DNA from: Bacteroidia bacterium | GTDB lineage: Bacteria; Bacteroidota; Bacteroidia; SpSt-205 | Reading direction: 5' to 3' | Assembly: GCA_026414975.1 (NCBI GenBank) | Contig: JAOAHZ010000010.1 | Location: 17,959 to 81,958 of the forward strand | Length of the DNA: 64,000 nt | Shown here: positions 32,906 to 57,834 of the stretch, one piece after another | How positions within the stretch are numbered: the stretch's first letter is position 1 | Layout: each line of letters opens with the position of its first letter | Position numbers and translations under genes: made by a program | Notes under the pieces: model-generated | The model's input: the letters and a program-made list of their open reading frames with translations, nothing else | The model's database searches: none | What the model was told of the DNA's origin: nothing

Positions 32906-32913
32906 TAACTTTG
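32906..32913 (+). promoter_or_regulatory. -7 box TAACTTTG, 4 nt before the ATG at 32918
   Basis: Read directly. Confidence 0.55.
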
Positions 32914-35133: not shown

Positions 35134-35141
35134 CAAAGGTA
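35134..35141 (-). promoter_or_regulatory. -7 box TACCTTTG, 4 nt before the folC GTG (35129)
   Basis: Plus strand reads caaaggta. Confidence 0.55.
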
Positions 35142-35213: not shown

Positions 35214-36689
35214 TTATTCACATGGACCTTCTGACTCAAACAGAAACTCCCGCTGCGTCTCTACACAGTCACCCCCTGAGAGAGAAGGTAAAGACACAGC
35301 AAACGAATAGCCCTCCTCATCAACCTCCGAACGATAGACTACCTCAGCAAAGCCACTTTTCACACATCGGTAATACACCTTATAGTGCTTAGTAACTTTT
35401 TGGCGCCCCCGGGGTGGACCGAGAGGAATCCCAGAAAGATAGCAGGCCCTCATAGTCTCCAGCGTATTTTCACCTACAGTGTCGCACCTCAGCGTCACGG
35501 GCACCAAGATCGTGCCGTTAGGTTCATACAGAGGCACCTCGGGAAAGCTGCCCCACTCTACGGACCATCCATCGGGAGGGGCATACCGCTGAGCCAAGTA
35601 CACTTTCAGGGCTTGGCGAACCTTAGGTCCATAATCAACCGTAGAGAAGTTTCGCCGAAATAGACGAACTGACCGCTCCGATTGAGAAAAACCGCCGGTA
35701 GCAAGAGACTCGAAGAGAAAATACACACTTGCCCCAACTATTCCCACAGCCACGACGATCCCCAGCACCGTCCAGGCTCGGCCAAGAGAGCCTCGTTCTT
35801 GGGGCCGAGAAGCTGATAAAGTGGATTTGGGCTTATCATACGTGATTTGAGAGGATTCAGCAGAAGGCTGACCCACCGAATGAGAGCCACCTTTTCGGAG
35901 ACTAAGGAAGGCTTCTTTCATCACTTCGGCGGAGGGGAAGCGATCCTCGGGCGCCTTAGCTAAAGCCCGATTGAGAAACGTTCTCCATTCAGGTGGAGCC
36001 CAGTCAGGGATTTTGGGCGGTTCGTTCAGGAGACGCTGGTATAGCTGGAACAGGGTCAGCCCCTCCCATTCCCACGGCGGACACCCAAAGAGGCATTCCG
36101 CTATCACCAAGCCCATAGCATATAGATCGGTTTGGGGCGACACTGGTTCCCCCCTAATCTGCTCAGGTGCCATGTACAACGTAGTCCCTACCCGCATGCC
36201 GACTTGCGTTAGCTTCAGGTCTTCATCTAAGGCTTTAGCTATGCCAAAGTCTATGAGCTTTCCTTCGCCACTCGGTAAGACCAGAACATTAGAGGGCTTG
36301 ATATCGCGATGGATTATCTTGTGCCGATGGAGATAACCCAGGGCGTCAAAGATAGGCTGAAGGATTGGGATACTCTCTTCTACCGACAAAGCGGAATGCT
36401 GCTTGAGATAACTTTCCAAGCTCTGCCCTTGAACATACTCCATAATCAGGTAGGGGACCCCCTGTTGAACGGTATAATCGTATAAGCGAACTATAGCCGG
36501 ATGACTCAACTGCGCCAAAAGGCGAGCCTCGGTCAGAAATCGCTGATGCAGGTGCTCATTCTGAACGTATTGGGGATGCAGCGACTTCACCACGGCGAGG
36601 GTGCCAAGATGCACATGCTTGGCTAACCACACCCGTCCCATCCCTCCCTCGGCTAAGGCCTGGAGGAGCTCGTAACTTCCCACCTGCAT
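35214..36689 (-). CDS. Ser/Thr protein kinase with TM helix and Cys-containing extracytoplasmic C-domain
   Basis: HRDIKPSN, DFGIAK and APE motifs, with TM segment WTVLGIVVAVGIVGASVYFLF. The start at MQVGSYELL lies 7 nt after TATCTTTG. The track's GTG at 36710 lies upstream of that box. Confidence 0.85.
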   Translation of the reverse strand: MQVGSYELLQALAEGGMGRVWLAKHVHLGTLAVVKSLHPQYVQNEHLHQRFLTEARLLAQLSHPAIVRLYDYTVQQGVPYLIMEYVQGQSLESYLKQHSALSVEESIPILQPIFDALGYLHRHKIIHRDIKPSNVLVLPSGEGKLIDFGIAKALDEDLKLTQVGMRVGTTLYMAPEQIRGEPVSPQTDLYAMGLVIAECLFGCPPWEWEGLTLFQLYQRLLNEPPKIPDWAPPEWRTFLNRALAKAPEDRFPSAEVMKEAFLSLRKGGSHSVGQPSAESSQITYDKPKSTLSASRPQERGSLGRAWTVLGIVVAVGIVGASVYFLFESLATGGFSQSERSVRLFRRNFSTVDYGPKVRQALKVYLAQRYAPPDGWSVEWGSFPEVPLYEPNGTILVPVTLRCDTVGENTLETMRACYLSGIPLGPPRGRQKVTKHYKVYYRCVKSGFAEVVYRSEVDEEGYSFAVSLPSLSGGDCVETQREFLFESEGPCE

Positions 36690-36696
36690 CTTCCCG

Positions 36697-36704
36697 CAAA
36701 GATA
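36697..36704 (-). promoter_or_regulatory. -7 box TATCTTTG, 7 nt before the Ser/Thr kinase ATG (36689)
   Basis: Plus strand reads caaagata. Confidence 0.55.
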
Positions 36705-36826
36705 ATCCACCCCTTACTCCTTTTGAGAACAACCAGAAGGGCTAAGAAGCTAAGGGACAACCTTCGCTTTCCATACCACCCCTTTCAGTGAAGGCATGTT
36801 AGGCGATCGATTACTACCTTCATAGA

Positions 36827-37660
36827 GTGCTGACAGAGTTCTTACCCGATATATCGGATGCCGAGTTAGAGCAGTTTATGCAGATCATGCTCACTCAACA
36901 CGGGTATGACTTTCGAGGGTATGCCCCCGCTTCTCTCAAGCGGCGTTTGGGCTTAGTCATTAAGAAGTACGGTTTCACGAGTCTCATCCCTCTCAACCAG
37001 CGACTGCTAACCCAGCCTGAGTATCTTAGGTACTTCATCAACGAGATTACGGTATCCACGACAGAGCTATTTCGAGATCCAGCTGCTTGGGTAGCCTTGC
37101 GCGTACAGGCGCTCCCCCCCTTTTTTGCCCTACCGGAAATACGCATCTGGCATGTGGGAGCTTCCACAGGAGAAGAGGTTATTTCCATGGCCATTCTTCT
37201 TCAAGAGATAGGTCTATATAGCCGAGCCCGTATATTTGCCACAGACATTGATGACATATCCATAGAGAAAGCCAAGAGCGCCCAATATCCCGCTCGAAGC
37301 AGAAACTTATACAAGCAGAACTTTCAAGCGGTATTTCCCACAAGCAGTTTTGAGAAATATGCCCATGAAGAAGGTGGCCATTTAGTGTTTGACCCATCCC
37401 TCTTGAAGAATACACGATTCCTGAAGCATAATATCGTTACGGAAGCAGCCTTTGGAGAGTTTGAAGTTATACTGTGCAGAAACCTCTTGATTTATTTCAC
37501 ACCGCCCCTACAAGATCAAGTCGTTACGAAGCTGGTAGATAGTCTGGTGCCAGGAGGCATACTCATGATAGGTACTAAGGAGTCCCTTTTCTGGTGTTCT
37601 GCTGCTAAGCGCCTTATAGCTGTGAACGACTCTGAACGGATCTACCGAAAGCAGAAATGA
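36827..37660 (+). CDS. cheR: CheR-type protein-glutamate O-methyltransferase
   Basis: TELFRD and IWHVGASTGEEVISMAILL SAM-binding motifs. 277 aa, GTG start. Confidence 0.8.
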   Translation: MLTEFLPDISDAELEQFMQIMLTQHGYDFRGYAPASLKRRLGLVIKKYGFTSLIPLNQRLLTQPEYLRYFINEITVSTTELFRDPAAWVALRVQALPPFFALPEIRIWHVGASTGEEVISMAILLQEIGLYSRARIFATDIDDISIEKAKSAQYPARSRNLYKQNFQAVFPTSSFEKYAHEEGGHLVFDPSLLKNTRFLKHNIVTEAAFGEFEVILCRNLLIYFTPPLQDQVVTKLVDSLVPGGILMIGTKESLFWCSAAKRLIAVNDSERIYRKQK

Positions 37661-38238
37661 TACCCCGGGGACCTGAAGTATTCTTATGGATTATTGGAGG
37701 CTCAGCCGGCAGCTTCAATCCGATTCGTAGCTTCCTTCATCAGATGCCCTATTATCGGGAAGTAGCTATCATTTTATGCTTGCATCGCTTGCGAAATCCC
37801 CGTGTAGGCATGGTAGAAGCTATTGGAGCTTTGAAAGGATGGGAGGTCTCTGAGCCGGATGACAAAACCTACATTCACGGTGGGCATGTTTATATTTCCC
37901 CTGCCGATTACCATCTTCTGGTAGAGGCCACGGGATATCTGAGTCTTTCGGTAGAGGAACCTGTCCATTTTTCTCGCCCAAGCATAGATGTGCTCTTAGA
38001 ATCGGTCGTTCGGGCTCGGTGGAAAAAGGCAGCAGCAGCTTTATTCTCAGGGGCTAATCGGGATGGAGCTCAAGGTATGTACCTCATGCATCAAGCTGGT
38101 CATTTCACAGCCATACAGGACCCCGACGATGCTGAGATTCGTACCATGCCTGAAGCGGCCCTGGCGCTTTTTGAACCCAATGTACGCTTCAAAGCGGCTG
38201 ATTTCGTAAAAGTGTGCTTGCAAGCTATAACTTTGTAA
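37657..38238 (+). CDS. cheB: CheB-type methylesterase, catalytic domain only (no receiver domain)
   Basis: 193 aa. IGGSAGS (nucleophile Ser region), LCLHR, and SGANRDGAQG (Asp). ATGA overlap with cheR. Confidence 0.75.
   Translation: MIPRGPEVFLWIIGGSAGSFNPIRSFLHQMPYYREVAIILCLHRLRNPRVGMVEAIGALKGWEVSEPDDKTYIHGGHVYISPADYHLLVEATGYLSLSVEEPVHFSRPSIDVLLESVVRARWKKAAAALFSGANRDGAQGMYLMHQAGHFTAIQDPDDAEIRTMPEAALALFEPNVRFKAADFVKVCLQAITL
38228..38235 (+). promoter_or_regulatory. -7 box TAACTTTG inside the last codons of cheB, 7 nt before the PEBP ATG (38243)
   Basis: Read directly. Confidence 0.5.
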
Positions 38239-38242
38239 AGGT

Positions 38243-38716
38243 ATGAGCGTGCTGGGGATACTTCTATGGGGACAAATGTGGATAAAGATAGGGGATTATG
38301 CTCCGGGAGCTACGCTGAGCATAGAATACACCTGTGATGGGGGAAATGTACCTCCCCCCATCCACTGGGGCGGTGCCCCTCGAGAAACCCAAGCCTATGT
38401 TCTTCGGATGTATGACCCTGATGCACCGGCCGACACATTCATTCACTGGATAGTCTACAATCTTATGGAGACCCAGACAGGTCATTCTTCTCAGAACCTT
38501 CTACAAGGGTATAATGACTTTGGCAAAGTGGGATATGGAGGCCCCTGCCCACCGCCTAAGGACGGGGCCCATCGCTATGTAGTGGAGGTCTATGCACTCC
38601 AGAAACCCCTGTCCATAAAAGGAGCGGTTACATGGGAGCGCATCCGAAGCGCTATGGTTGGCAAGGTGCTGGATCAGGCTCAAACCTTCGTAGTCTATAA
38701 ACGGCAAAAACCCTAA
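38243..38716 (+). CDS. YbhB/YbcL family Raf-kinase-inhibitor-like (PEBP) protein
   Basis: YDPDAP...FIHW...GYGGPCPP...HRYVVEVYAL PEBP signature. Its own TAACTTTG box lies 7 nt upstream. Confidence 0.8.
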   Translation: MSVLGILLWGQMWIKIGDYAPGATLSIEYTCDGGNVPPPIHWGGAPRETQAYVLRMYDPDAPADTFIHWIVYNLMETQTGHSSQNLLQGYNDFGKVGYGGPCPPPKDGAHRYVVEVYALQKPLSIKGAVTWERIRSAMVGKVLDQAQTFVVYKRQKP

Positions 38717-41451
38717 TGCCGCGTTGGAGCGTTGGTGATTACTTGGGAGTGGGTTTAGCCGTGTTTGTAGGGGCGGTAGGCGTACTGGTCTTGGCTGGAG
38801 TATGGATAATCGCCCAGCGCGACATTGCCCTTGCGGAGAAAGCCGCTCACTGGGAGACTTGGGACCGATTATTCTCCGTGTGGGCATACGGCATGGTGCT
38901 GAGTTTATTCGGGCTATCGGTTGGATTGGCTTTGTGGTGGTGGGCTCGCCTTGCTCGTCCCTTACTCAAGCTGCGAGATAAAATGCGGGGGCTTCTATGG
39001 GAGGGTATAGTTTCACCTCCTATTTCTCACCCTGCCCCGGTAGAAGCTGTCGAAATAGATCAATCCACGGAAGCGATACGAGCAGCATTGAGCTTTTTAG
39101 ATGAAGTAGCTCGGGGAATGCGACAGAGTGCTTCACCAGCGTCCTCCGATTGGCCTCCTATCTTGGGGAAAATAACCAAACAGATTACCCAGGAACTCAG
39201 CGAAGGGCGTCGGATGGGAGCTCTACGAGAAACTCTCCTCCAAGAAGCGCTCAACCTCATGAAGCTGGGCCAGCAAACCCCCTCCGTAGAAGCCTACCTT
39301 GCCAAGGCAGGCCCCACTTTTCTTCAGAGTGTGGGAGCATCTATGGGAGCTTTCTATCGCTTAGAAGGGGAAAACCTTCGTCGTCTGTATAGCTACGCCT
39401 ACCCAGCCCATGGTCCTCAAACATTCGCTTTGGGAGAAGGGTGGATCGGACAGGTTGCTCGCGAGGGAAGAGCCCTGTGGCTCTCTACGCTTCCCCAAGG
39501 TTATCTACAAGCCCTTTCCGGACTGGGCAAAGCTCCACCTCAGGCTGCTGCCGTCCTACCTGTTATCGCTGGGGATAGCATTCGGGGAGTATGGGATGTG
39601 GCGACCTTCACGGAATGGGACTCAGACCAGCGTCTCGTGGCCGAGTTTCTCCTTCCCTTCTTCGCTGTCGGCTACCTCCTAAGAGAAGAAGCCGAGCGCG
39701 AGCGTCACCTCTCAGCGACCTGCATGAGGCTGCAAAATCAGATCACTTCTCTTGAGACCGAATCCGCCCAGCTCAAGGCTCAAGCTGAGCAGCTCCAGCA
39801 TACGCTTCGCCTCCTTGAACAAAAGACCCAAGACGAACGCTCTCACATCCAACAGCTTGAGCGCCAGCTTCTTTCAGCCCGAAGTCGTTGGGACACGATT
39901 GTAAAGCATCTACGTGAGGCCATAGTCTTCTTTGATGCCACAGGGCGGCCACGCTACCTCAGTCCCGCTGTTTCCCAGCTACTTGGCTATTCGGAAGAGG
40001 AGCTGCAAGTATTCTTCCGGCCCGTAGAACGGGCCGATGCTGATATAGTGCGGCAGTATTTTCAGACTCTCCTAAGTCCTACCGCCAACGGCATACCTCA
40101 AATCCTTCGCTTCCGCTACTACCATAAAGACGGGCGTCTGCTCTGGTTAGAAGCCATCGGACGAAACTACCTTACGCAACCCGGCATTGAAGCCGTTTTG
40201 CTGATTTTGCGAGATGTAACAGATGAAATAGAGTACGAGAAGCAATACCGCACACGCCTCAAGTTCCAATCTCTTGTAGAAAACTCTCCTGATATCATCT
40301 TCCGCACCGACCGAGAGGGACGGTTTTTATACGTCAATCCCACAATTGAACGCTATACCGGCTATTCTCCTCAGCATTACATCAGAAATACGATTTACTC
40401 CGTAGGCTTTTCCCTAGATGAGGTTCAGTTCTGGGCGGAATTTATACAAAAGCTCTTTGACACCCTCACCGTACAAGCTGCTGAAATAGATTTTCCCTCT
40501 GTATATGGTGTGCGAAAGATGGCTGTACGTGGCATTCCAGAAGTTGGACCTGACGGCGAAGTAGAAACTATGGTTGTACTGCTGCAAGACATTACAGAGC
40601 TGAGGCAAGCCCAAGAACAGCTTCATTTACAAAACTCGCGATTAGAACAAGCGAGGCGCACCTTGGAAGCGCAAAAGTTAGAGTTAGAAGAAAAAAATCG
40701 AGATATCATGGAAAGCATTACCTATGCTCGGCGGATTCAGGGAGCTCTTTTACCCGGAGAAGAGGGATTGAAGTCGCTCTTCCCTGATAGCTTTGTGCTT
40801 CACTGGCTGCGGGATGTGGTAGGGGGAGATTTTTACTGGTGCGGTGAGGTCCAAGGCCAAAAGATCATCGCTGTAGTCGACTGCACAGGACACGGAGTGC
40901 CAGGGGCCTTCATGACTTTCTTAGGGTATACCCTATTAGAGTCTGCGGTGCGGGAACGAGGTCTCATAGATCCAGCCCAGATTTTGTATTACATGGATAC
41001 TCGGCTGAGAGGACTTTTATCAGGTCAAGAAGCCATGCAAGACGGTATGGACATGGTATTATGCAGCATAGACCCCCAGAGACGCATCGTGCGGTTTGCC
41101 GGGGCTCACCGCCCCCTCCTCGTCTATCAACAAGGGCGATGGAACTTGCTTCCAGGCATGCCCACTGGATTAGGAGGTGCACCATGGCTAGACAAGGTCA
41201 AAAGCTTCTCTACCCATACCTTTTCCTATCAGAGTGGGGATGCTCTCTATCTTTATACAGATGGGTTTTCAGATCAGTTCAGCGCAGATGGGCAGCGCCG
41301 TTACACACACCGACGTTTCAGACAGCTCCTTATGACATGGGCTCATTTACCTATGGCTGAACAACATAAAAAGCTTCTGGAAGAGCTAAGTGGATGGATG
41401 GGGGAAAATCCACCTACAGACGATATCACTGTGGTTGGCTTGCGTTTATGA
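38716..41451 (+). CDS. membrane-bound sensor PP2C (SpoIIE-type) protein phosphatase: 2 TM, GAF-like, coiled coil, 2 PAS, PP2C (SiaA-like role)
   Basis: 911 aa. N-terminal hydrophobic segments, PAS-like blocks (aa about 390-640), and a C-terminal DCTGHGVPGAFMT...YLYTDGFSDQ...DDITVVGLRL SpoIIE/PP2C pattern. The ATG overlaps the PEBP stop (TAATG). Confidence 0.8.
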   Translation: MPRWSVGDYLGVGLAVFVGAVGVLVLAGVWIIAQRDIALAEKAAHWETWDRLFSVWAYGMVLSLFGLSVGLALWWWARLARPLLKLRDKMRGLLWEGIVSPPISHPAPVEAVEIDQSTEAIRAALSFLDEVARGMRQSASPASSDWPPILGKITKQITQELSEGRRMGALRETLLQEALNLMKLGQQTPSVEAYLAKAGPTFLQSVGASMGAFYRLEGENLRRLYSYAYPAHGPQTFALGEGWIGQVAREGRALWLSTLPQGYLQALSGLGKAPPQAAAVLPVIAGDSIRGVWDVATFTEWDSDQRLVAEFLLPFFAVGYLLREEAERERHLSATCMRLQNQITSLETESAQLKAQAEQLQHTLRLLEQKTQDERSHIQQLERQLLSARSRWDTIVKHLREAIVFFDATGRPRYLSPAVSQLLGYSEEELQVFFRPVERADADIVRQYFQTLLSPTANGIPQILRFRYYHKDGRLLWLEAIGRNYLTQPGIEAVLLILRDVTDEIEYEKQYRTRLKFQSLVENSPDIIFRTDREGRFLYVNPTIERYTGYSPQHYIRNTIYSVGFSLDEVQFWAEFIQKLFDTLTVQAAEIDFPSVYGVRKMAVRGIPEVGPDGEVETMVVLLQDITELRQAQEQLHLQNSRLEQARRTLEAQKLELEEKNRDIMESITYARRIQGALLPGEEGLKSLFPDSFVLHWLRDVVGGDFYWCGEVQGQKIIAVVDCTGHGVPGAFMTFLGYTLLESAVRERGLIDPAQILYYMDTRLRGLLSGQEAMQDGMDMVLCSIDPQRRIVRFAGAHRPLLVYQQGRWNLLPGMPTGLGGAPWLDKVKSFSTHTFSYQSGDALYLYTDGFSDQFSADGQRRYTHRRFRQLLMTWAHLPMAEQHKKLLEELSGWMGENPPTDDITVVGLRL

Positions 41452-41459
41452 GGTTTAGT

Positions 41460-41467
41460 TATCTTTG
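41460..41467 (+). promoter_or_regulatory. -7 box TATCTTTG, 8 nt before the SiaB-like-1 ATG (41476)
   Basis: Read directly. Confidence 0.5.
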
Positions 41468-41475
41468 CCACGAAT

Positions 41476-42048
41476 ATGGTTACTGCTGAGTCTGAGTTGT
41501 TGTACAAACCTGCCCTTACTTATACCTATCCGCTCTACAGAAACATGCTAGACAATAGTGTGGTCTTCATGTATCACGGTCCGATAACTACAGACCTGAT
41601 GATAGATGTACTGAATCTTGTAGAATACCGATTAGAGGATGCGGGCGAGCAACGCCGTATTAGCAAAAAGCTCTTCAATATCATGGTAGAATCTTTCGCC
41701 TTAGGAGAAGATAATCGTCGGGCAGGAGCTGTGCTCATAGTGCGACAGCTGCCTTATTTGTACTCAGTGAGCATCGGTCGTCAAGTGGCTAGCAACTCAG
41801 TCCATGAAATCCGCTCCTTCATTGACTGGGTCAATACCCGCACTCCAGATCAACTTCGTGATGCCTACCATACCTTGCTTCAGAATAAATCCTCCTCCCT
41901 CCCTGCTCAAGTCGGTGGAGTACCCTCTATAAGCATATTAGACTTAGCTCGCAAGTCTCATGACCTTCTTCAATACGGATTCGAGTATTTGGACGACCAA
42001 GCGACCTTTTTTTCTCTTGAAGCCCGAATAAAGAAGCTTAATCCATAA
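41476..42048 (+). CDS. SiaB-like partner-switch kinase paralog 1 (ATP-binding motifs degenerate)
   Basis: 190 aa, colinear with paralog 2 (FMYHGPIT/FVYQGEVT; FFSLEARI/FFSLEARV). Has ESFALGEDN where paralog 2 has ECLQNVYHH, and GGVPSISILDLARKS where paralog 2 has GTAGLGMIDIARKS. Confidence 0.5.
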   Translation: MVTAESELLYKPALTYTYPLYRNMLDNSVVFMYHGPITTDLMIDVLNLVEYRLEDAGEQRRISKKLFNIMVESFALGEDNRRAGAVLIVRQLPYLYSVSIGRQVASNSVHEIRSFIDWVNTRTPDQLRDAYHTLLQNKSSSLPAQVGGVPSISILDLARKSHDLLQYGFEYLDDQATFFSLEARIKKLNP

Positions 42049-42437
42049 TGGATATGGAAGCTCTACGGATTGAATCTACACACAAAACACCACGGGTTAT
42101 CTTAGACCCCGAGAATGGTATATTTGAGTTTTCTGGCCGCAGTATTCCGGAGGACTCAGTAGGCTTTTACACCCCCATCTTTGACTGGCTTGATCAGTAT
42201 GCTAAACAGCCGCTACCCATGACCCATGTGCGCTTTGATTTAGAGTACTTCAACACCAGTAGCTCCAAGAATATTCTGGAAGTTCTCAAGCGCTTGGAAG
42301 CTATATATGCGGCCGGCCATGAGGTACGAGTTACATGGTACTATGACGAGGATGATGAGGACATGGAAGAGACAGGTCAAGATTACCAGGCCTTACTCAA
42401 CCTTCCGATAGAGCTCTCCGTCAAAGTCCAATCTTGA
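42048..42437 (+). CDS. DUF1987 (SiaC-like) phosphoprotein paralog 1
   Basis: 129 aa. Contains TPRVILDPENGIFEFSGRSIPED, LEYFNTSSSK and ETGQDYQALL. TAATG overlap with the upstream gene. Confidence 0.65.
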   Translation: MDMEALRIESTHKTPRVILDPENGIFEFSGRSIPEDSVGFYTPIFDWLDQYAKQPLPMTHVRFDLEYFNTSSSKNILEVLKRLEAIYAAGHEVRVTWYYDEDDEDMEETGQDYQALLNLPIELSVKVQS

Positions 42438-43006
42438 AGCCTATGAGCATGACTTATAGCTACTATAAGAACATGCAGCTGAACAACATCATCTTTGTGT
42501 ATCAAGGTGAGGTTACAGCTGACTTAGTTTCATCTATCCTTCAAATGGTAGAGAATAAGCTAGAGGGGGAGGGCGAAGATCGCAAAGTCAAAAAGCGAGT
42601 CTTTAACGTAATGGTTGAGTGTTTACAAAATGTGTACCATCATTTAGATGCGCTGCCTCCAACCGACCCTTCAAATCCGGTCCGGGATAAAACAGCTCTT
42701 CTCATGATTGGACGAGAAGAGAAAGACTACTACATCATCACCGGGAATCATGTCCTGAATGATCGGATTCCGGACCTCAAGGCTCGATTGGACCGTATCA
42801 ATAGGTCTTCCAAAGAAGAGCTAAAGCAGCTATATCAAGAAGTACTCACGGGCACAGGCTTTAGTGAGAAGGGTACGGCAGGTTTGGGCATGATAGATAT
42901 TGCCCGAAAATCGGGGCAACGATTAGGTTATGACTTTCACCCAGTCAATGAGAAATATTCCTTTTTCAGCTTAGAAGCTCGTGTATCTCGTATACCTGAG
43001 AAGTAA
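42434..43006 (+). CDS. SiaB-like partner-switch kinase paralog 2 (GHKL-like N-box and G-box intact)
   Basis: 190 aa. MVECLQNVYHH (E..N..H) and GTAGLGMIDIARKSG. ATGA overlap with the upstream gene. Confidence 0.55.
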   Translation: MKPMSMTYSYYKNMQLNNIIFVYQGEVTADLVSSILQMVENKLEGEGEDRKVKKRVFNVMVECLQNVYHHLDALPPTDPSNPVRDKTALLMIGREEKDYYIITGNHVLNDRIPDLKARLDRINRSSKEELKQLYQEVLTGTGFSEKGTAGLGMIDIARKSGQRLGYDFHPVNEKYSFFSLEARVSRIPEK

Positions 43007-43007
43007 A

Positions 43008-43015
43008 TAACTTTG
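43008..43015 (+). promoter_or_regulatory. -7 box TAACTTTG, 8 nt before the DUF1987-2 ATG (43024)
   Basis: Read directly. Confidence 0.5.
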
Positions 43016-43023
43016 CCCTGCCC

Positions 43024-43398
43024 ATGCGAAATCTTGTCATAGAGCCTACTTCAAAAACGCCCAAGGTCATCTTGAACGCTGACCTGGGCATATTTGAGAT
43101 AACGGGTAGGAGCATACCCGAAGATGCGATTGGATTTTACAGAAAGGTACTGGACTGGATAGAGGAATATAGCAAGTCCCCTTTATCCGAGACCGTCTTC
43201 AAGTTTCAACTGGAGTACTTCAATACCAGTTCTTCTAAGTGTCTCTTGGATATCTTTCGGAAGTTAGAGCGCATGCACAAAAATGGCAACAAGGTGCAGA
43301 TTCGCTGGCATTATGATTCAGATGATGAGGACATGGCAGAAACGGGACAAGATTACCAGGCGCTCTTAGATGTGCCATTTGAGCTGGTACCCGTATGA
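43024..43398 (+). CDS. DUF1987 (SiaC-like) phosphoprotein paralog 2
   Basis: 124 aa. More than half of aligned residues are identical to paralog 1 by eye (LEYFNTSSSK, DDEDM.ETGQDYQALL). Its own TAACTTTG box lies 8 nt upstream. Confidence 0.65.
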   Translation: MRNLVIEPTSKTPKVILNADLGIFEITGRSIPEDAIGFYRKVLDWIEEYSKSPLSETVFKFQLEYFNTSSSKCLLDIFRKLERMHKNGNKVQIRWHYDSDDEDMAETGQDYQALLDVPFELVPV

Positions 43399-43850
43399 AA
43401 GATGAATACTTTGTAGAAGAGACAGCCTTCTTAGAAGAAGCTCGGGCTCGCGCTGAGCGAGGAGGACTTCCCCCTCATGAATGGAGAGAGGCTTACGCTA
43501 AGCTGGTAGAAAACTACGAGAGTCTTCTTAAGGTCGTTCAAGTCCTCACTCACCAGGCGACTCAGTTAGAGTCAAAGTTGGAAAAGGCTCGGGCTCAATT
43601 GGAACTGCAGCGCAAGGCCCTAAGCCACGAAGTAGAGGGTTTAGAGCGTCAGGTACAGTATCAGCAAAGGGAGGTCCATAAAAAAGCTCAAGAGCGAGAC
43701 ATCCTATATGACCGAATGGGACGCACTCGAATGATGCTGATTGTGCTCTTTGCGGTTCTTCTCGTGATTGTAGCCTTTGTAGCCTATTACATTTTCATAG
43801 ACACCGAGCAGATGATTAGGTTTGTGAAAAGTGTCCGTGGGCTCGACTGA
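43395..43850 (+). CDS. coiled-coil protein with C-terminal TM anchor (paralog 1)
   Basis: 151 aa. F.EET.FLEEAR...EW..AY.KLVENYESLL, a heptad-rich middle, and TM MMLIVLFAVLLVIVAFVAYYIFI near the C-terminus. ATGA overlap with the DUF1987 gene. Confidence 0.55.
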   Translation: MKDEYFVEETAFLEEARARAERGGLPPHEWREAYAKLVENYESLLKVVQVLTHQATQLESKLEKARAQLELQRKALSHEVEGLERQVQYQQREVHKKAQERDILYDRMGRTRMMLIVLFAVLLVIVAFVAYYIFIDTEQMIRFVKSVRGLD

Positions 43851-43864
43851 CAAGCCATAATCTG

Positions 43865-43872
43865 TACTTTTG
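43865..43872 (+). promoter_or_regulatory. -7 box TACTTTTG, 6 nt before the ATG at 43879
   Basis: Read directly. Confidence 0.5.
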
Positions 43873-43878
43873 TTGAGT

Positions 43879-44346
43879 ATGACAGCCGCCAGCGGAAATA
43901 GAGACCTGTTCGCTGAAGAGACCCATTTACTCCAAGAAGCCCGTTTGACCCTTGCTCGCTTAGATTTATCGGACGCTGAATGGCAAGACAACTACCGCCG
44001 AATGGTGGAGGAATACGAACGCCTTCTGGGTGAAGCCAGAACGCTCCGTCGTATAGCTGACCGCAACCAGCGCCGTTTAGATGAGATGAATTCTGAGCTT
44101 GAGCGCCAAAACCAACTCCTCCGAGAGAAAGAAGAAGAGGTCAAGAAGACCCAACAGGCTATCATCCATAACTATCAGCGCATTTCGGAAGAGCAGTCTA
44201 TCATTGATAGGCGAGTCGGACGGATTCAGATAGTTCTGGTCGTTATGATTGCTGTGCTGACCGTTCTAATCCTTTTTATGCTGTACTACTTGATATTTGA
44301 TCCTATTCGGGCGATTGAGCTGATGGAGTCTATCAAGAAACCTTGA
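43879..44346 (+). CDS. coiled-coil protein with C-terminal TM anchor (paralog 2)
   Basis: Same architecture as paralog 1: FAEETHLLQEAR...EW.DNYRRMVEEYERLL, a coiled coil, and TM IVLVVMIAVLTVLILFMLYYLIF. The ATG at 43879 lies 6 nt after TACTTTTG; the track starts at the TTG at 43870, inside the box. Confidence 0.55.
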   Translation: MTAASGNRDLFAEETHLLQEARLTLARLDLSDAEWQDNYRRMVEEYERLLGEARTLRRIADRNQRRLDEMNSELERQNQLLREKEEEVKKTQQAIIHNYQRISEEQSIIDRRVGRIQIVLVVMIAVLTVLILFMLYYLIFDPIRAIELMESIKKP

Positions 44347-44352
44347 TCCAGA

Positions 44353-44940
44353 ATGCTGTGGATCAGCCTGGCTATTTGGATTGCTGATACCCTCGCTGAT
44401 GTCGAGTACCAGTGGGCTGGATTCTACGAGAAAGGTCCTGAGACCTGCGCTCAAGTTCATGTCCAAGCCACTACCCGCCCCCTTCTACTCTTATGGCAAG
44501 AGAGTTTGACCGGCAACGATTGGGTTACTATCCAACGAGTGCGCATAGACCGATGGAACGTGCCTAAGGATTATACGATTTGCTCTAAAGGAGGCAAACA
44601 AGGGATACGAGTGCGGGTCATCCTAACTGGGGTTAGCGCCCAGAGTCCTAAAGCCATCCTCTATGATGGATACCCTTGGGGAGAACCCCCTCTTCCCTCC
44701 GATATCAGCTTAGAGCCAGGTCAACCCTCTATCCTCCAAGTAAATATAACTGCAGCCGGAAACTACCTTTTGAGAGCCTTCAATCGGTTTGGTGAGGAGG
44801 TATTTACCATACCCGTGGAACTCCCTACACCTCAGAAACTTAGTTTTACTATACCTCAAGTTCTGAAGGGGCCCCACCTCGTTCAGCTATACAGCCTAAG
44901 CTATGGACGATTGATTGCAGAAAAACTCATTCAACTATGA
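44353..44940 (+). CDS. hypothetical secreted protein, possible T9SS C-terminal sorting domain
   Basis: 195 aa. The C-terminal beta-rich block ILQVNITAAGNYLLRAFNRFGEEVF...LVQLYSLSYGRLIAEKLIQL loosely resembles T9SS CTDs. The N-terminus is only weakly signal-like. Confidence 0.35.
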   Translation: MLWISLAIWIADTLADVEYQWAGFYEKGPETCAQVHVQATTRPLLLLWQESLTGNDWVTIQRVRIDRWNVPKDYTICSKGGKQGIRVRVILTGVSAQSPKAILYDGYPWGEPPLPSDISLEPGQPSILQVNITAAGNYLLRAFNRFGEEVFTIPVELPTPQKLSFTIPQVLKGPHLVQLYSLSYGRLIAEKLIQL

Positions 44941-45788: not shown

Positions 45789-46430
45789 ATGCGTCTGTAT
45801 CGCTTCGTAACGAATCCCTATCAAGAGAATACCTATCTGCTTCTTGGAAGGGCAGGAACCGCTTGGGTCATAGACCCTGGCTTTTATACAGAGAGTGAGC
45901 GCAAAGCTTTTCAATCCTTCCTTTCAGCCGAGAAATGCCGCCTATCTGGCATATATCTGACGCACACTCATATTGATCACATCTTAGGCGTACGGTGGGT
46001 AGCCAGCACTTACCACGTCCCTGTATTTTATCATACACAGGAGAGCATCATCTACGAATACGCTTCAGAATGGGCGACTTTGATGGGTTTAGTCTACGAA
46101 CCCGGTCCTTTAGCCGAGCGTTTCTTGGAAGCTGGGGAGGTACTCTACTTAGATGGCGAGGTGGTACAAGTCCTTTATGTTCCGGGTCATTCACCGGGAC
46201 ATGTGGGATTTTATTTCCCTGACAGTCAAAAACTTGTCTCCGGCGATGTGCTATTCCGCGGAAGTATCGGAAACTACGAACTTCCGTTAGCCGATTACCA
46301 CACTCTCATGAACTCTTTACGGAATACCATCCTAACCTTGCCCGATGACACTGAAGTTTGGCCTGGCCATGGAGAACCTACCTTCATCGGACACGAACGA
46401 CAAACCAACCCGTTTCTAAAGGGAATATGA
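45789..46430 (+). CDS. MBL-fold metallo-hydrolase (glyoxalase II-like)
   Basis: THTHIDH motif and PGHSPGH. 213 aa. Confidence 0.75.
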   Translation: MRLYRFVTNPYQENTYLLLGRAGTAWVIDPGFYTESERKAFQSFLSAEKCRLSGIYLTHTHIDHILGVRWVASTYHVPVFYHTQESIIYEYASEWATLMGLVYEPGPLAERFLEAGEVLYLDGEVVQVLYVPGHSPGHVGFYFPDSQKLVSGDVLFRGSIGNYELPLADYHTLMNSLRNTILTLPDDTEVWPGHGEPTFIGHERQTNPFLKGI

Positions 46431-46990
46431 AGTATCAAATAGAAACGAGGGGGGATGTAATCATCTTTCGTCCGATGGAGGCTCGGCTGAACGCCGCCAT
46501 AACGCCTGAGCTCAAATCTCAACTAACTATTCTCGCCCACAGCTCAAACAGTGGAGTGATTGTGGATCTGAGTGCGGTTGAAAGTCTGGATAGCTCAGTT
46601 CTGAGTGCTTTGCTACTTTTGCGGCGGATGCTTCAGCCGTCGGGTCGCTCCATGGTCGTAGTGGCTCCGACCCCTGCGCTGCAGTCCGTATTCAACCTTT
46701 CTAAGTTGGATGAAATCTTCACGCTTATGACGACTATAGAAGATGCTATGAAGTACATGCAGCAGCAAGCCACACTGCTGGCTAAGAAGGCTCGAGACGA
46801 AGAGGAAGAAGAGGAATGGGAAGAAGAGGGAGAAGATTGGGAGGAAGAAGACTGGGATGAGGACGATGAAGATTGGGGTGAGGAGGATGAAGAGTGGGAG
46901 GATGAAGACTGGGAGGAGGAAGATTGGGACGATGAAGATTGGGACGATGAAGATTGGGAGGAGGAAGAAGAGGACGAGGAGGAGGAATGA
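46427..46990 (+). CDS. STAS-domain (anti-sigma-factor-antagonist-like) protein with long acidic/Trp C-terminal tail
   Basis: The DLSAVESLDSSVLSAL block corresponds to the SpoIIAA-type phospho-Ser loop. The start MKYQIE overlaps the upstream stop (ATGA). Tail residues 124-187 are almost entirely D/E/W. Confidence 0.75.
   Translation: MKYQIETRGDVIIFRPMEARLNAAITPELKSQLTILAHSSNSGVIVDLSAVESLDSSVLSALLLLRRMLQPSGRSMVVVAPTPALQSVFNLSKLDEIFTLMTTIEDAMKYMQQQATLLAKKARDEEEEEEWEEEGEDWEEEDWDEDDEDWGEEDEEWEDEDWEEEDWDDEDWDDEDWEEEEEDEEEE
46796..46987 (+). repeat. low-complexity GAA/GAT/GAG/TGG coding repeat (acidic-Trp tail of the STAS protein)
   Basis: Translation is DEEEEEEWEEEGEDWEEEDWDEDDEDWGEEDEEWEDEDWEEEDWDDEDWDDEDWEEEEEDEEEE. 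DNA units gaagattggga(c/g)ga(t/g) recur. Confidence 0.9.
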
Positions 46991-47907: not shown

Positions 47908-50722
<2,815 letters not shown>

Positions 50723-50872: not shown

Positions 50873-50880
50873 TACCTTTG
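50873..50880 (+). promoter_or_regulatory. -7 box TACCTTTG, 4 nt before the GH18 protein ATG (50885)
   Basis: Read directly. Confidence 0.55.
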
Positions 50881-56051: not shown

Positions 56052-56059
56052 CAAATGTA
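56052..56059 (-). promoter_or_regulatory. -7 box TACATTTG, 5 nt before the aspartate kinase ATG (56046)
   Basis: Plus strand reads caaatgta. Confidence 0.55.
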
Positions 56060-57826: not shown

Positions 57827-57834
57827 TACTTTTG
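57827..57834 (+). promoter_or_regulatory. -7 box TACTTTTG, 4 nt before the GTG at 57839
   Basis: Read directly. Confidence 0.5.

Follow-up and report, generated by a model that had tools for sequence, protein, structure and literature searches.

What does a partner switch act on when neither an enzyme nor a transcription factor is encoded nearby to receive its signal? The question is raised by a 64,000-nucleotide stretch of DNA from a Bacteroidia bacterium (GenBank assembly GCA_026414975.1, contig JAOAHZ010000010.1, positions 17,959–81,958 of the forward strand), which we refer to as the window and number from its first letter. It encodes a membrane-bound phosphatase resembling SiaA of Pseudomonas aeruginosa, followed by two pairs of SiaB-like and SiaC-like genes and then by genes for two small coiled-coil proteins, CC1 and CC2, each with a C-terminal transmembrane (TM) segment. 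A first-pass annotation of positions 38243–44346 had placed these two proteins in the output position of a duplicated SiaABC-type switch. We think it reasonably probable that the locus is a partner switch of the SiaABC type and that it acts directly on these two proteins, as homologues of the SiaD stalk that are anchored in the membrane and carry no enzyme domain.

The switch proteins

All ten of the open reading frames (ORFs) checked against the first-pass annotation were recovered at the same positions with the same domains (ORF list, Pfam and NCBIfam), and the assignment of phosphatase, kinase and phosphoprotein was borne out by family models and by alignments to the solved P. aeruginosa proteins. 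Unless noted otherwise, genes of the window described here lie on the + strand. The phosphatase (38716–41451, 911 aa) has two N-terminal hydrophobic segments (2 TM), GAF_2 (residues 204–296), a coiled coil, PAS_3 (414–484), PAS (516–626), a signalling helix and a PP2C domain (SpoIIE, 717–910). It matched the NCBIfam SiaA model NF038263 at 3.5e-57 over the C-terminal 270 aa, which comprise the PP2C domain and the helix preceding it; the full-length equivalog cut-off was missed because the sensor part differs. The sole PDB match of the PP2C domain was P. aeruginosa SiaA (6K4E, 2.6e-37), with which the metal-binding motifs DVVGGDFY, VDCTGHG and DDIT align, and we class the protein as a SiaA-type PP2C phosphatase.

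Both small phosphoproteins belong to the SiaC (DUF1987) family: SiaC1 (42048–42437) matched PF09345 at 4.7e-42 and SiaC2 (43024–43398) at 1.1e-43. The alignment of SiaC2 with P. aeruginosa SiaC (6KKO/6KKP/7E6G, 1e-17) runs from end to end, and residues Y65, N67, T68 and S69 of the latter are identical in both copies. The FNTSSSK loop, which the first-pass annotation had singled out for a test of phosphorylation, is present in SiaC1 and SiaC2, and its Thr aligns with T68 of P. aeruginosa SiaC. The predicted phospho-acceptors are accordingly Thr70 of SiaC1 (42255–42257, with the NTS triplet read in the DNA) and Thr68 of SiaC2 (43225–43227).

The two SiaB-like proteins are not equivalent. SiaB2 (42443–43006) scored 169 bits against the SiaB-family model NF038262, for which the cut-off is 85, and matched SiaB chain 6KKO_A at 4.6e-11 with VECLQN and GTAGLG kept; by its motifs it is an intact SiaB-family kinase. 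Its ORF opens with TTG at 42434, and the start is most likely the ATG at 42443. SiaB1 (41476–42048; DUF6272 9e-14) is a divergent paralog that reached 76 bits, below the cut-off, and found SiaB in the PDB only weakly (E 0.049). It retains the Glu of MVE and has lost the QN that follows, and GAGLG is replaced by VPSIS. The predicted catalytic Glu of SiaB is E61 (PMC7647112).

Relatives of the locus were gathered with a SiaC-anchored genome scan and mapped with local hidden Markov models (HMMs), which gave three diverged Bacteroidia clades, A to C; the loci carry L numbers below. The nearest relatives are metagenome-assembled genomes (MAGs) of uncultured hot-spring 'Bacteroidia bacterium'. In all clade-A orthologs of SiaB1, the residues past the predicted catalytic Glu are deleted or replaced (VESF-ALGED), and the first-position SiaB paralog of clade B is partly degenerate. 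Identity within clade A is 62–79% for SiaB1 and 92–97% for SiaB2, with 87–95% for SiaC1 and 92–98% for SiaC2. SiaC1, SiaB2 and SiaC2 (87–98%) are the most conserved proteins of the block, and the flanking housekeeping genes stand at 56–82%. SiaB1 is probably a pseudokinase. The doubling of the cassette described in the first-pass annotation is therefore real in that there are two SiaB–SiaC pairs but asymmetric, with one working kinase and one probable pseudokinase as judged by motifs, and its expectation that the proteins of ~190 and ~125 aa would match SiaB and SiaC models held for both SiaC copies and SiaB2 but not for SiaB1.

The first-pass annotation had seen no cyclase, sigma factor or anti-sigma factor in the 64 kb. 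Pfam sweeps of essentially every ORF in the window likewise returned no GGDEF domain, nucleotide cyclase, sigma-70/ECF factor, anti-sigma kinase or methyl-accepting chemotaxis protein (MCP). Neither a cyclase or GGDEF protein nor a sigma factor is present in the syntenic relatives.

The stalk-module family

CC1 (43395–43850; TM at approximately residues 113–131) and CC2 (43879–44346; TM near the C-terminus) are paralogs, as had been proposed, with 31% identity (E 4e-23) and one C-terminal TM segment each. The start of CC2 is most likely the ATG at 43879, which would give a protein of 155 aa like its orthologs. AlphaFold2 (AF2) predicted both as a long single helix, which in CC1 spans residues 27–135. 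Because word-index homology searches reached close relatives only, an exhaustive HMM search was needed. Searched against 1.84e9 proteins, a profile of the CC family found 458 cluster representatives, of which 82 reach E<=1e-10. In nearly all cases the match begins no later than residue 15, and the motif [S/G]D[R/K]LQxKL recurs near residue 60.

We define the stalk-module family by this N-terminal module of ~90 aa, with the pattern F..E...L..A ... Y..LL ... [SG]D[RK]LQ.KL followed by TM segments or by a signalling enzyme domain; neither Pfam nor NCBIfam has a model for it. CC1 (1.7e-23) and CC2 (1.4e-25) share the module with the other stalk proteins and are the only ORFs of the window that match its HMM. 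In the phosphatase, where a stalk module could have served as a SiaC feedback route, none was detected at E<=0.01. The module can be summarised by the signature [S/A]D[R/K]xQxKL. The motif of CC2 reads RIADRNQRRL (44050–44079), and CC1 has a derived form, HQATQLESKL (43551–43580).

Architectures were counted for the top 146 of the 458 cluster representatives. The stand-alone short form with one or two TM segments is the commonest (91/146), 54 having one and 37 two, and a further 23 short proteins, many of them fragment-like, have no predicted TM segment. In the remainder, the stalk module is followed by HATPase_c (17, with HisKA in 16 of these), SpoIIE (5), a class III cyclase domain (Guanylate_cyc, 4), GGDEF (4) or GAF (2–3), and in a single protein, P0092, a SiaC domain stands in front of the stalk module and two TM segments.

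Conservation of gene order

Clade A carries the whole block. In clade B, where SiaC2 identity falls to 72–74%, five of eight loci have one CC/TM gene after the doubled SiaBC cassette; clade B and locus L018 have a stalk of the CC2 type only. Clade C has a single SiaB–SiaC pair followed by a 184-aa coiled-coil protein with two hydrophobic segments, in wholly different surroundings. The order SiaB–SiaC–CC/TM is thus common to all three clades, and the pairing of DUF1987 with a coiled-coil/TM gene, for which the first-pass annotation had proposed a neighbourhood comparison, is conserved.

Loci retrieved by way of the stalk protein gave the same picture. L089 has SiaB, SiaC and a stalk/TM gene in this order, L090 has SiaB, SiaC and a stalk fused to HisKA-HATPase, and in L087 and L088 SiaB is followed by a SiaC::stalk fusion. 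A metagenome scan with nothing but the motif SDRLQNKL of a tight subfamily yielded 13 loci, 12 of them evaluable, and SiaC lies directly upstream of the stalk gene in 10 of these 12. Two of the ten read Reg_prop/Y_Y_Y-SpoIIE phosphatase, SiaB, SiaC and stalk/TM in order. Enzyme-fused stalks are often found apart from SiaBC, with none within 4–5 kb at L086 and L102/L103.

This conservation bears on a trivial explanation of the locus, that the coiled-coil genes follow SiaC2 by an accident of a compact genome and that the profile matches reflect coiled-coil composition. ATGA overlaps and near-zero gaps do occur throughout the array, between unrelated housekeeping genes too, and coiled coils are prone to spurious profile matches, but we find this reading barely credible given an order kept in three clades with wholly different flanks and in 10 of 12 loci sampled by motif alone, the existence of SiaC::stalk fusions, matches that start at residues 2–15 in nearly all cases and share a specific motif, and a known SiaC binder that heads a search of 177,635 PDB sequences by three orders of magnitude.

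Relation to the SiaD stalk

That binder is P. aeruginosa SiaD. A profile built from the module only (A4) gave SiaD (7E6G_A) as its top PDB match at E 2.3e-4, and the next match had E 0.12. The alignment sets the vSDrlQ of the module in register with both SiaD motifs that crystallography has defined as sites of SiaC binding, RISDGFQ and RISDRYQ, and the CC2 motif aligns with R80-I81-S82-D83-R84-Y85-Q86 of SiaD. In the complex of the two proteins, SiaC grips the parallel coiled coil of the SiaD stalk at a motif that occurs twice; T68 of SiaC contacts S82/Q86 and S50/Q54 of SiaD, and phosphorylation of T68 blocks binding (PMC8457831). An earlier hand alignment of the SiaD contact residues to 'VE(N/E)YE' of CC1/CC2 was dropped when the profile search put the motif at 'ADRNQ'.

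A further line of evidence comes from residues on both partners. The structure paper describes a salt bridge between SiaC D79 and SiaD R74 (PMC8457831), and at this position we observed a charge swap. Where a SiaC protein is encoded beside a TM-type stalk, its residue 79 is R/K and the stalk has D/E at −10/−9 relative to the motif; P. aeruginosa and the histidine-kinase-type pair of L090 have SiaC D79 and a stalk with R/K at −10/−9. The pair R103–D91 shows a similar swap. The covariation rests on few independent lineages and is therefore suggestive only. The gene order, the fusion, the homology of the module and this swap are four independent lines in favour of placing CC1 and CC2 in the output position, and the homology supports the view that they are enzyme-less relatives of the SiaD stalk.

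Proposed mechanism and its alternatives

In the mechanism that we favour, the membrane-bound GAF-PAS-PAS-PP2C phosphatase would dephosphorylate Thr68/70 of the two SiaC proteins and SiaB2 would rephosphorylate them. SiaB1 has lost its nucleotide-binding motifs and would therefore probably only bind SiaC. By analogy with 7E6G, unphosphorylated SiaC would dock on CC2 at the [S/A]D[R/K]xQ motif of its cytoplasmic coiled coil, and on CC1 at the derived form of that motif. Two stalks would thereby be zipped together as a parallel dimer, which is what the SiaC4:SiaD2 crystal shows for SiaD; the dimer might consist of two CC1 chains, of two CC2 chains or of one of each. In the AF2 models the stalk helix runs on into the membrane; the output may then be a changed oligomeric state of the anchor together with SiaC recruited to the membrane. 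It would not be the synthesis of a second messenger, because the stalk ends in a TM helix and not in GGDEF. A CheR-type methyltransferase and a CheB methylesterase encoded at the head of the block probably add methylation tuning, perhaps on the signalling helix of the phosphatase or on the stalk. This role is suggested by analogy with Bacillus cereus RsbM and with the Paludibacteraceae locus L048, both described below. Inspection of CC1, CC2 and the phosphatase by eye only gave no convincing MCP-style methylation consensus sites.

Several observations weigh against the proposal. CC1 has lost from its motif (ATQLE) an Asp that is nearly invariant, along with the acidic residues at −10/−9, and no stalk gene lies near the doubled SiaBC cassette of the clade-B loci L020–L022. 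SiaD is linked to the family transitively: profiles made from TM-type proteins only (the clade-restricted A3, and A6) miss SiaD in the PDB at E<=10, and pairwise hhalign gave P 7e-4 and a probability of 26%, with the register correct. In the charge-swap covariation, the 'acidic SiaC' class consists of two lineages only. The natural SiaC::stalk fusion P0092 was folded with AF2 (pLDDT 84.8, pTM 0.47), and the model gives no information on SiaC–stalk contacts. Finally, a stalk with no catalytic domain is a putative output only.

In the main alternative, CC1 and CC2 do bind SiaC but are not the terminal output and instead tether or sequester unphosphorylated SiaC, and perhaps SiaB, near the TM phosphatase, the outputs being stalk-module enzymes encoded elsewhere and reached in trans. 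The TM-type stalk has no catalytic domain, every evaluable TM-type stalk gene directly follows SiaC, and enzyme-fused stalks are often orphans, as with the GGDEF protein P0150 and the neighbouring stalk::histidine kinase of L086 and the stalk::histidine kinase of L102/L103. That TM types sit beside SiaBC and enzyme types often do not fits a built-in component on one side and trans targets on the other. We nevertheless hold this to be rather unlikely, since no stalk-module enzyme is encoded in the window or within ±10 kb of any clade A–C locus, and since at L090 an enzyme-type stalk occupies exactly the position of the TM type, which suggests that the two are equivalent.

A classical partner switch has also to be considered, in which the phosphatase acts mainly on a STAS-domain protein that controls an anti-sigma kinase and a sigma factor elsewhere, the coiled coils being bystanders. 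A candidate is encoded at 46427–46990 (PF01740 2e-14, with a DSS phospho-motif), ~2 kb downstream of the cassette and syntenic throughout clade A, and the clade C loci L083 and L085 carry a SpoIIE-STAS-HATPase_c_2 module 3 kb from the SiaB–SiaC–stalk triad. In the window, however, unrelated genes for a 3-hydroxyacyl-CoA dehydrogenase and a metallo-beta-lactamase separate the STAS gene from the cassette, and no STAS gene is next to the cassette in clade B, L084, L089 or L091–L101. The PP2C domain is specifically SiaA-like, with 6K4E as its sole PDB match, neither a sigma factor nor an anti-sigma kinase is encoded in the window, and the stalk homology, the fusion and the adjacency would be left unexplained. 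We regard this reading as very improbable. It is possible that the STAS protein is a second substrate of the PP2C phosphatase, and its membership in the system is uncertain. The protein ends in a tail of ~70 residues made up of nearly all Asp and Glu with evenly spaced Trp (EEWEEEGEDWEEEDWDEDDEDW...), and its gene has an ATGA overlap with the preceding metallo-beta-lactamase gene.

The proposal of membrane-anchored stalks as direct targets can be extended, although we consider the extension doubtful. The ~90-aa stalk may be a general and hitherto unnoticed 'SiaC-receiver' input module for histidine kinases, PP2C phosphatases and class III and GGDEF cyclases, and its stand-alone form, the commonest, a novel type of non-enzymatic signal output, a phosphorylation-gated membrane protein whose dimerisation would act directly on the membrane or envelope. 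In this lineage it might also be the methyl acceptor of CheR/CheB, and so a minimal MCP-like adaptation device.

Comparison with known systems

The locus shares with P. aeruginosa SiaABCD the order phosphatase–kinase–phosphoprotein–target, a SiaA-type PP2C, a SiaB-family kinase (SiaB2), an identical Y-x-N-T-S phospho-loop in SiaC and a putative target with an N-terminal coiled-coil stalk whose motif aligns to both motifs with which SiaD binds SiaC. It differs in that the proposed target has no GGDEF domain and its stalk runs out into a TM helix followed by a tail of ~15 aa. SiaD has two motifs in tandem, and each stalk protein here has a single one. Kinase and phosphoprotein are present twice, as is the stalk in clade A, and the first kinase copy is degenerate; the sensor of the phosphatase is TM-GAF-PAS-PAS, whereas that of P. 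aeruginosa is TM-HAMP; and in SiaC the charges of the specificity residues are reversed (D79 to R, R103 to D). Attached to the block are CheR, CheB and a PEBP gene. In the absence of a GGDEF output, we do not assign the locus to SiaABCD in the strict sense.

Two other assignments fail in a similar way. With a STAS protein present in the window but no HATPase_c_2 kinase and no sigma factor, the locus is not a classical STAS/anti-sigma switch of the SpoIIAA/AB or RsbV/W type. Nor is it a Che pathway, since CheR and a CheB without receiver (REC) domain are its only Che proteins in the window and the Pfam sweeps found no MCPsignal, CheW or CheA there.

Closer parallels exist for parts of the system. 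In the B. cereus RsbK-RsbM-RsbY sigma-B module, the CheR-type RsbM methylates the signalling helix of the sensor RsbK (PMC4574943). Both loci place a CheR-family gene beside a non-MCP sensor, with GAF and a signalling helix, that feeds a PP2C partner switch. In the window CheB is encoded too, the phosphatase doubles as the sensor, SiaC takes the place of STAS as antagonist, and there is no sigma factor. STAS switches that act on diguanylate cyclases are known from P. aeruginosa (HptB-HsbR-HsbA-HsbD) and Sinorhizobium meliloti (BgrU/W/V-BgrR) (PMC8457831, PMC7647112). There, as proposed here, the phosphorylation of a small antagonist-fold protein decides whether a target other than a sigma factor is bound; those systems use STAS proteins and enzymatic targets, whereas ours has DUF1987/SiaC and a non-enzymatic target.

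A Paludibacteraceae MAG (L048:436–12349) likewise combines CheR and CheB genes with those for SiaB, SiaC and a PP2C protein; in it, genes for a HAMP-MCP, CheR, a hemerythrin-like protein, HATPase_c, CheD and CheB(REC) are followed by SiaB, SiaC and REC-PAS-PP2C. This alternative-function chemosensory cluster resembles a Che-type pathway that has been connected to a switch of the Sia type. The window differs from it in lacking MCP, CheA, CheW and CheD and in having a CheB without receiver domain.

SiaABCD is currently understood as a Pseudomonas-type route to cyclic di-GMP. The first-pass annotation could not match the architecture of the locus to a described system. The searchable literature, in which a single paper mentions DUF1987, yielded no account of SiaC targets that are membrane-anchored stalks and nothing more, nor of a stalk that serves as a portable module; the architecture is nonetheless widespread and not peculiar to the window. 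About DUF1987 proteins, the structure paper went no further than to conjecture that they 'modulate adjacent proteins' (PMC8457831). From the sequences collected here, the stalk motif that SiaC-family proteins appear to recognise is portable and occurs joined to five different outputs or more; among the sequences sampled, the commonest of these is a membrane anchor without an enzyme. The stalk-module family would thereby generalise the principle of SiaC–SiaD recognition. Its signature would predict a function for hundreds of 'hypothetical' small membrane proteins, and the salt bridges that may determine specificity are open to mutation. The locus also raises the question of partner-switch signalling that has neither a catalytic nor a DNA-binding output, and it would be the second example, after B. 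cereus RsbM/RsbK, of CheR-type enzymes tied to a partner switch without an MCP.

Extent and transcription of the block

The genes of the range 38243–44346 are as the first-pass annotation gave them, but the conserved block begins upstream of that range, and the STAS gene downstream of it had been overlooked. The first gene of the block encodes the CheR-type methyltransferase (36827–37660; PF01739 2.5e-35), which is syntenic in clade A. CheB (37657–38238; PF01339 2.2e-35) is a methylesterase domain of 193 aa with no receiver domain, in which the GxSxG Ser, the His and the Asp motifs can be read, and is conserved together with CheR. CheR and CheB lie directly upstream of the SiaBC cassette region also in the clade B loci L019, L023 and L024. 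They are followed in the window by a gene of the PEBP/YbhB-YbcL family (38243–38716; PF01161 9e-36, TIGR00481 2e-29), found in clade A only, which shares 1 nt with the start of the phosphatase gene.

The block is part of an array of 16 co-directional genes, from CheR at 36827 to a Vut_1 gene at 48701, with overlaps or gaps of <=24 nt. The ATGA overlap of the SiaC2 stop and the CC1 start, from which translational coupling had been proposed, is real when read in the DNA; ATGA or 1-nt overlaps are usual throughout the array, unrelated housekeeping genes included, and so this overlap is no specific evidence of a link between SiaC2 and CC1.

The internal TAnnTTTG boxes reported in the first-pass annotation, which we take to be the Bacteroidota −7-type promoter motif, were confirmed. 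Four boxes on the + strand occupy the four short intergenic gaps and end 6–9 nt 5′ of start codons: TAACTTTG before PEBP (38228–38235), TATCTTTG before SiaB1 (41460–41467), TAACTTTG again before SiaC2 (43008–43015) and TACTTTTG before CC2 (43865–43872). All four are at the same positions in clade A, in 12 of the 12 species-level genomes examined. The whole window contains 55 such boxes where shuffled sequences led us to expect 27. As the boxes are real and conserved in position, the transcription units proposed earlier (PEBP–phosphatase, SiaB1–SiaC1–SiaB2, SiaC2–CC1 and a unit beginning with CC2) are plausible. Boxes stand 5–9 nt before many other starts in the window, for example at 32906–32913, 50873–50880 and 57827–57834 (+) and at 35134–35141 and 56052–56059 (−), which suggests that mRNA leaders in this lineage are very short or missing.

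Neighbouring genes and other SiaBC loci

Upstream, a Hanks-type Ser/Thr kinase with a TM segment (35214–36710, −; Pkinase 5e-53) is divergent from CheR across 116 nt, the only sizeable intergenic region; in relatives its place is taken by a 4TM-metallophosphoesterase gene. Directly after CC2 lies a gene for a 195-aa protein (44353–44940) that is found in clade A only, evolves fast (27–49% identity) and has no Pfam match even at E 0.05. It has a hydrophobic N-terminus, and its C-terminal ~80 residues resemble by eye a sorting domain of the type IX secretion system (T9SS). Elsewhere in the window, a 2406-aa ORF encodes SprA and a GH18 protein bears a T9SS sorting tail, both in keeping with DNA of Bacteroidota.

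The clade C triad (L083:5948–6983, L084:3347–4359, L026:8265–9360) is always preceded by genes for a ~230-aa protein with no Pfam match and a 111-aa two-TM protein with a weak likeness to Holin-X (PF07332, 4e-4), and rsmH is always the next gene downstream. At L086:5001–7057, a TARA ocean contig, the genes for stalk::GGDEF (P0150) and stalk::HisKA-HATPase are adjacent; neither SiaB nor SiaC is encoded within 5 kb of them, and 2 kb downstream is a gene for an ECF sigma factor.

In gut Bacteroidales (L036:9381–11273 and ~15 similar loci among L028–L049), a SiaB–SiaC pair is followed by a REC-LytTR response regulator and no stalk-module protein is encoded within ±10 kb, which suggests a different class of SiaC target. 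In the Cytophagales loci L030 and L040 the next gene encodes a TerB-ABC transporter fusion. Five loci (L029, L036–L039) have 'cleanbin' labels naming Pseudobutyrivibrio, Bifidobacteriaceae, Clostridium and Eggerthellaceae; their SiaC is ~51% identical and the gene order is Bacteroidales-like, and the labels are probably the result of mis-binning. Finally, directly upstream of CheR-CheB-SiaA in a single clade B genome, L024:44–3511 encodes a protein of more than 1150 aa with GAF, six PAS domains and no recognisable output domain, which recalls the CheB-CheR-PAS-kinase fusions common in Bacteroidota.

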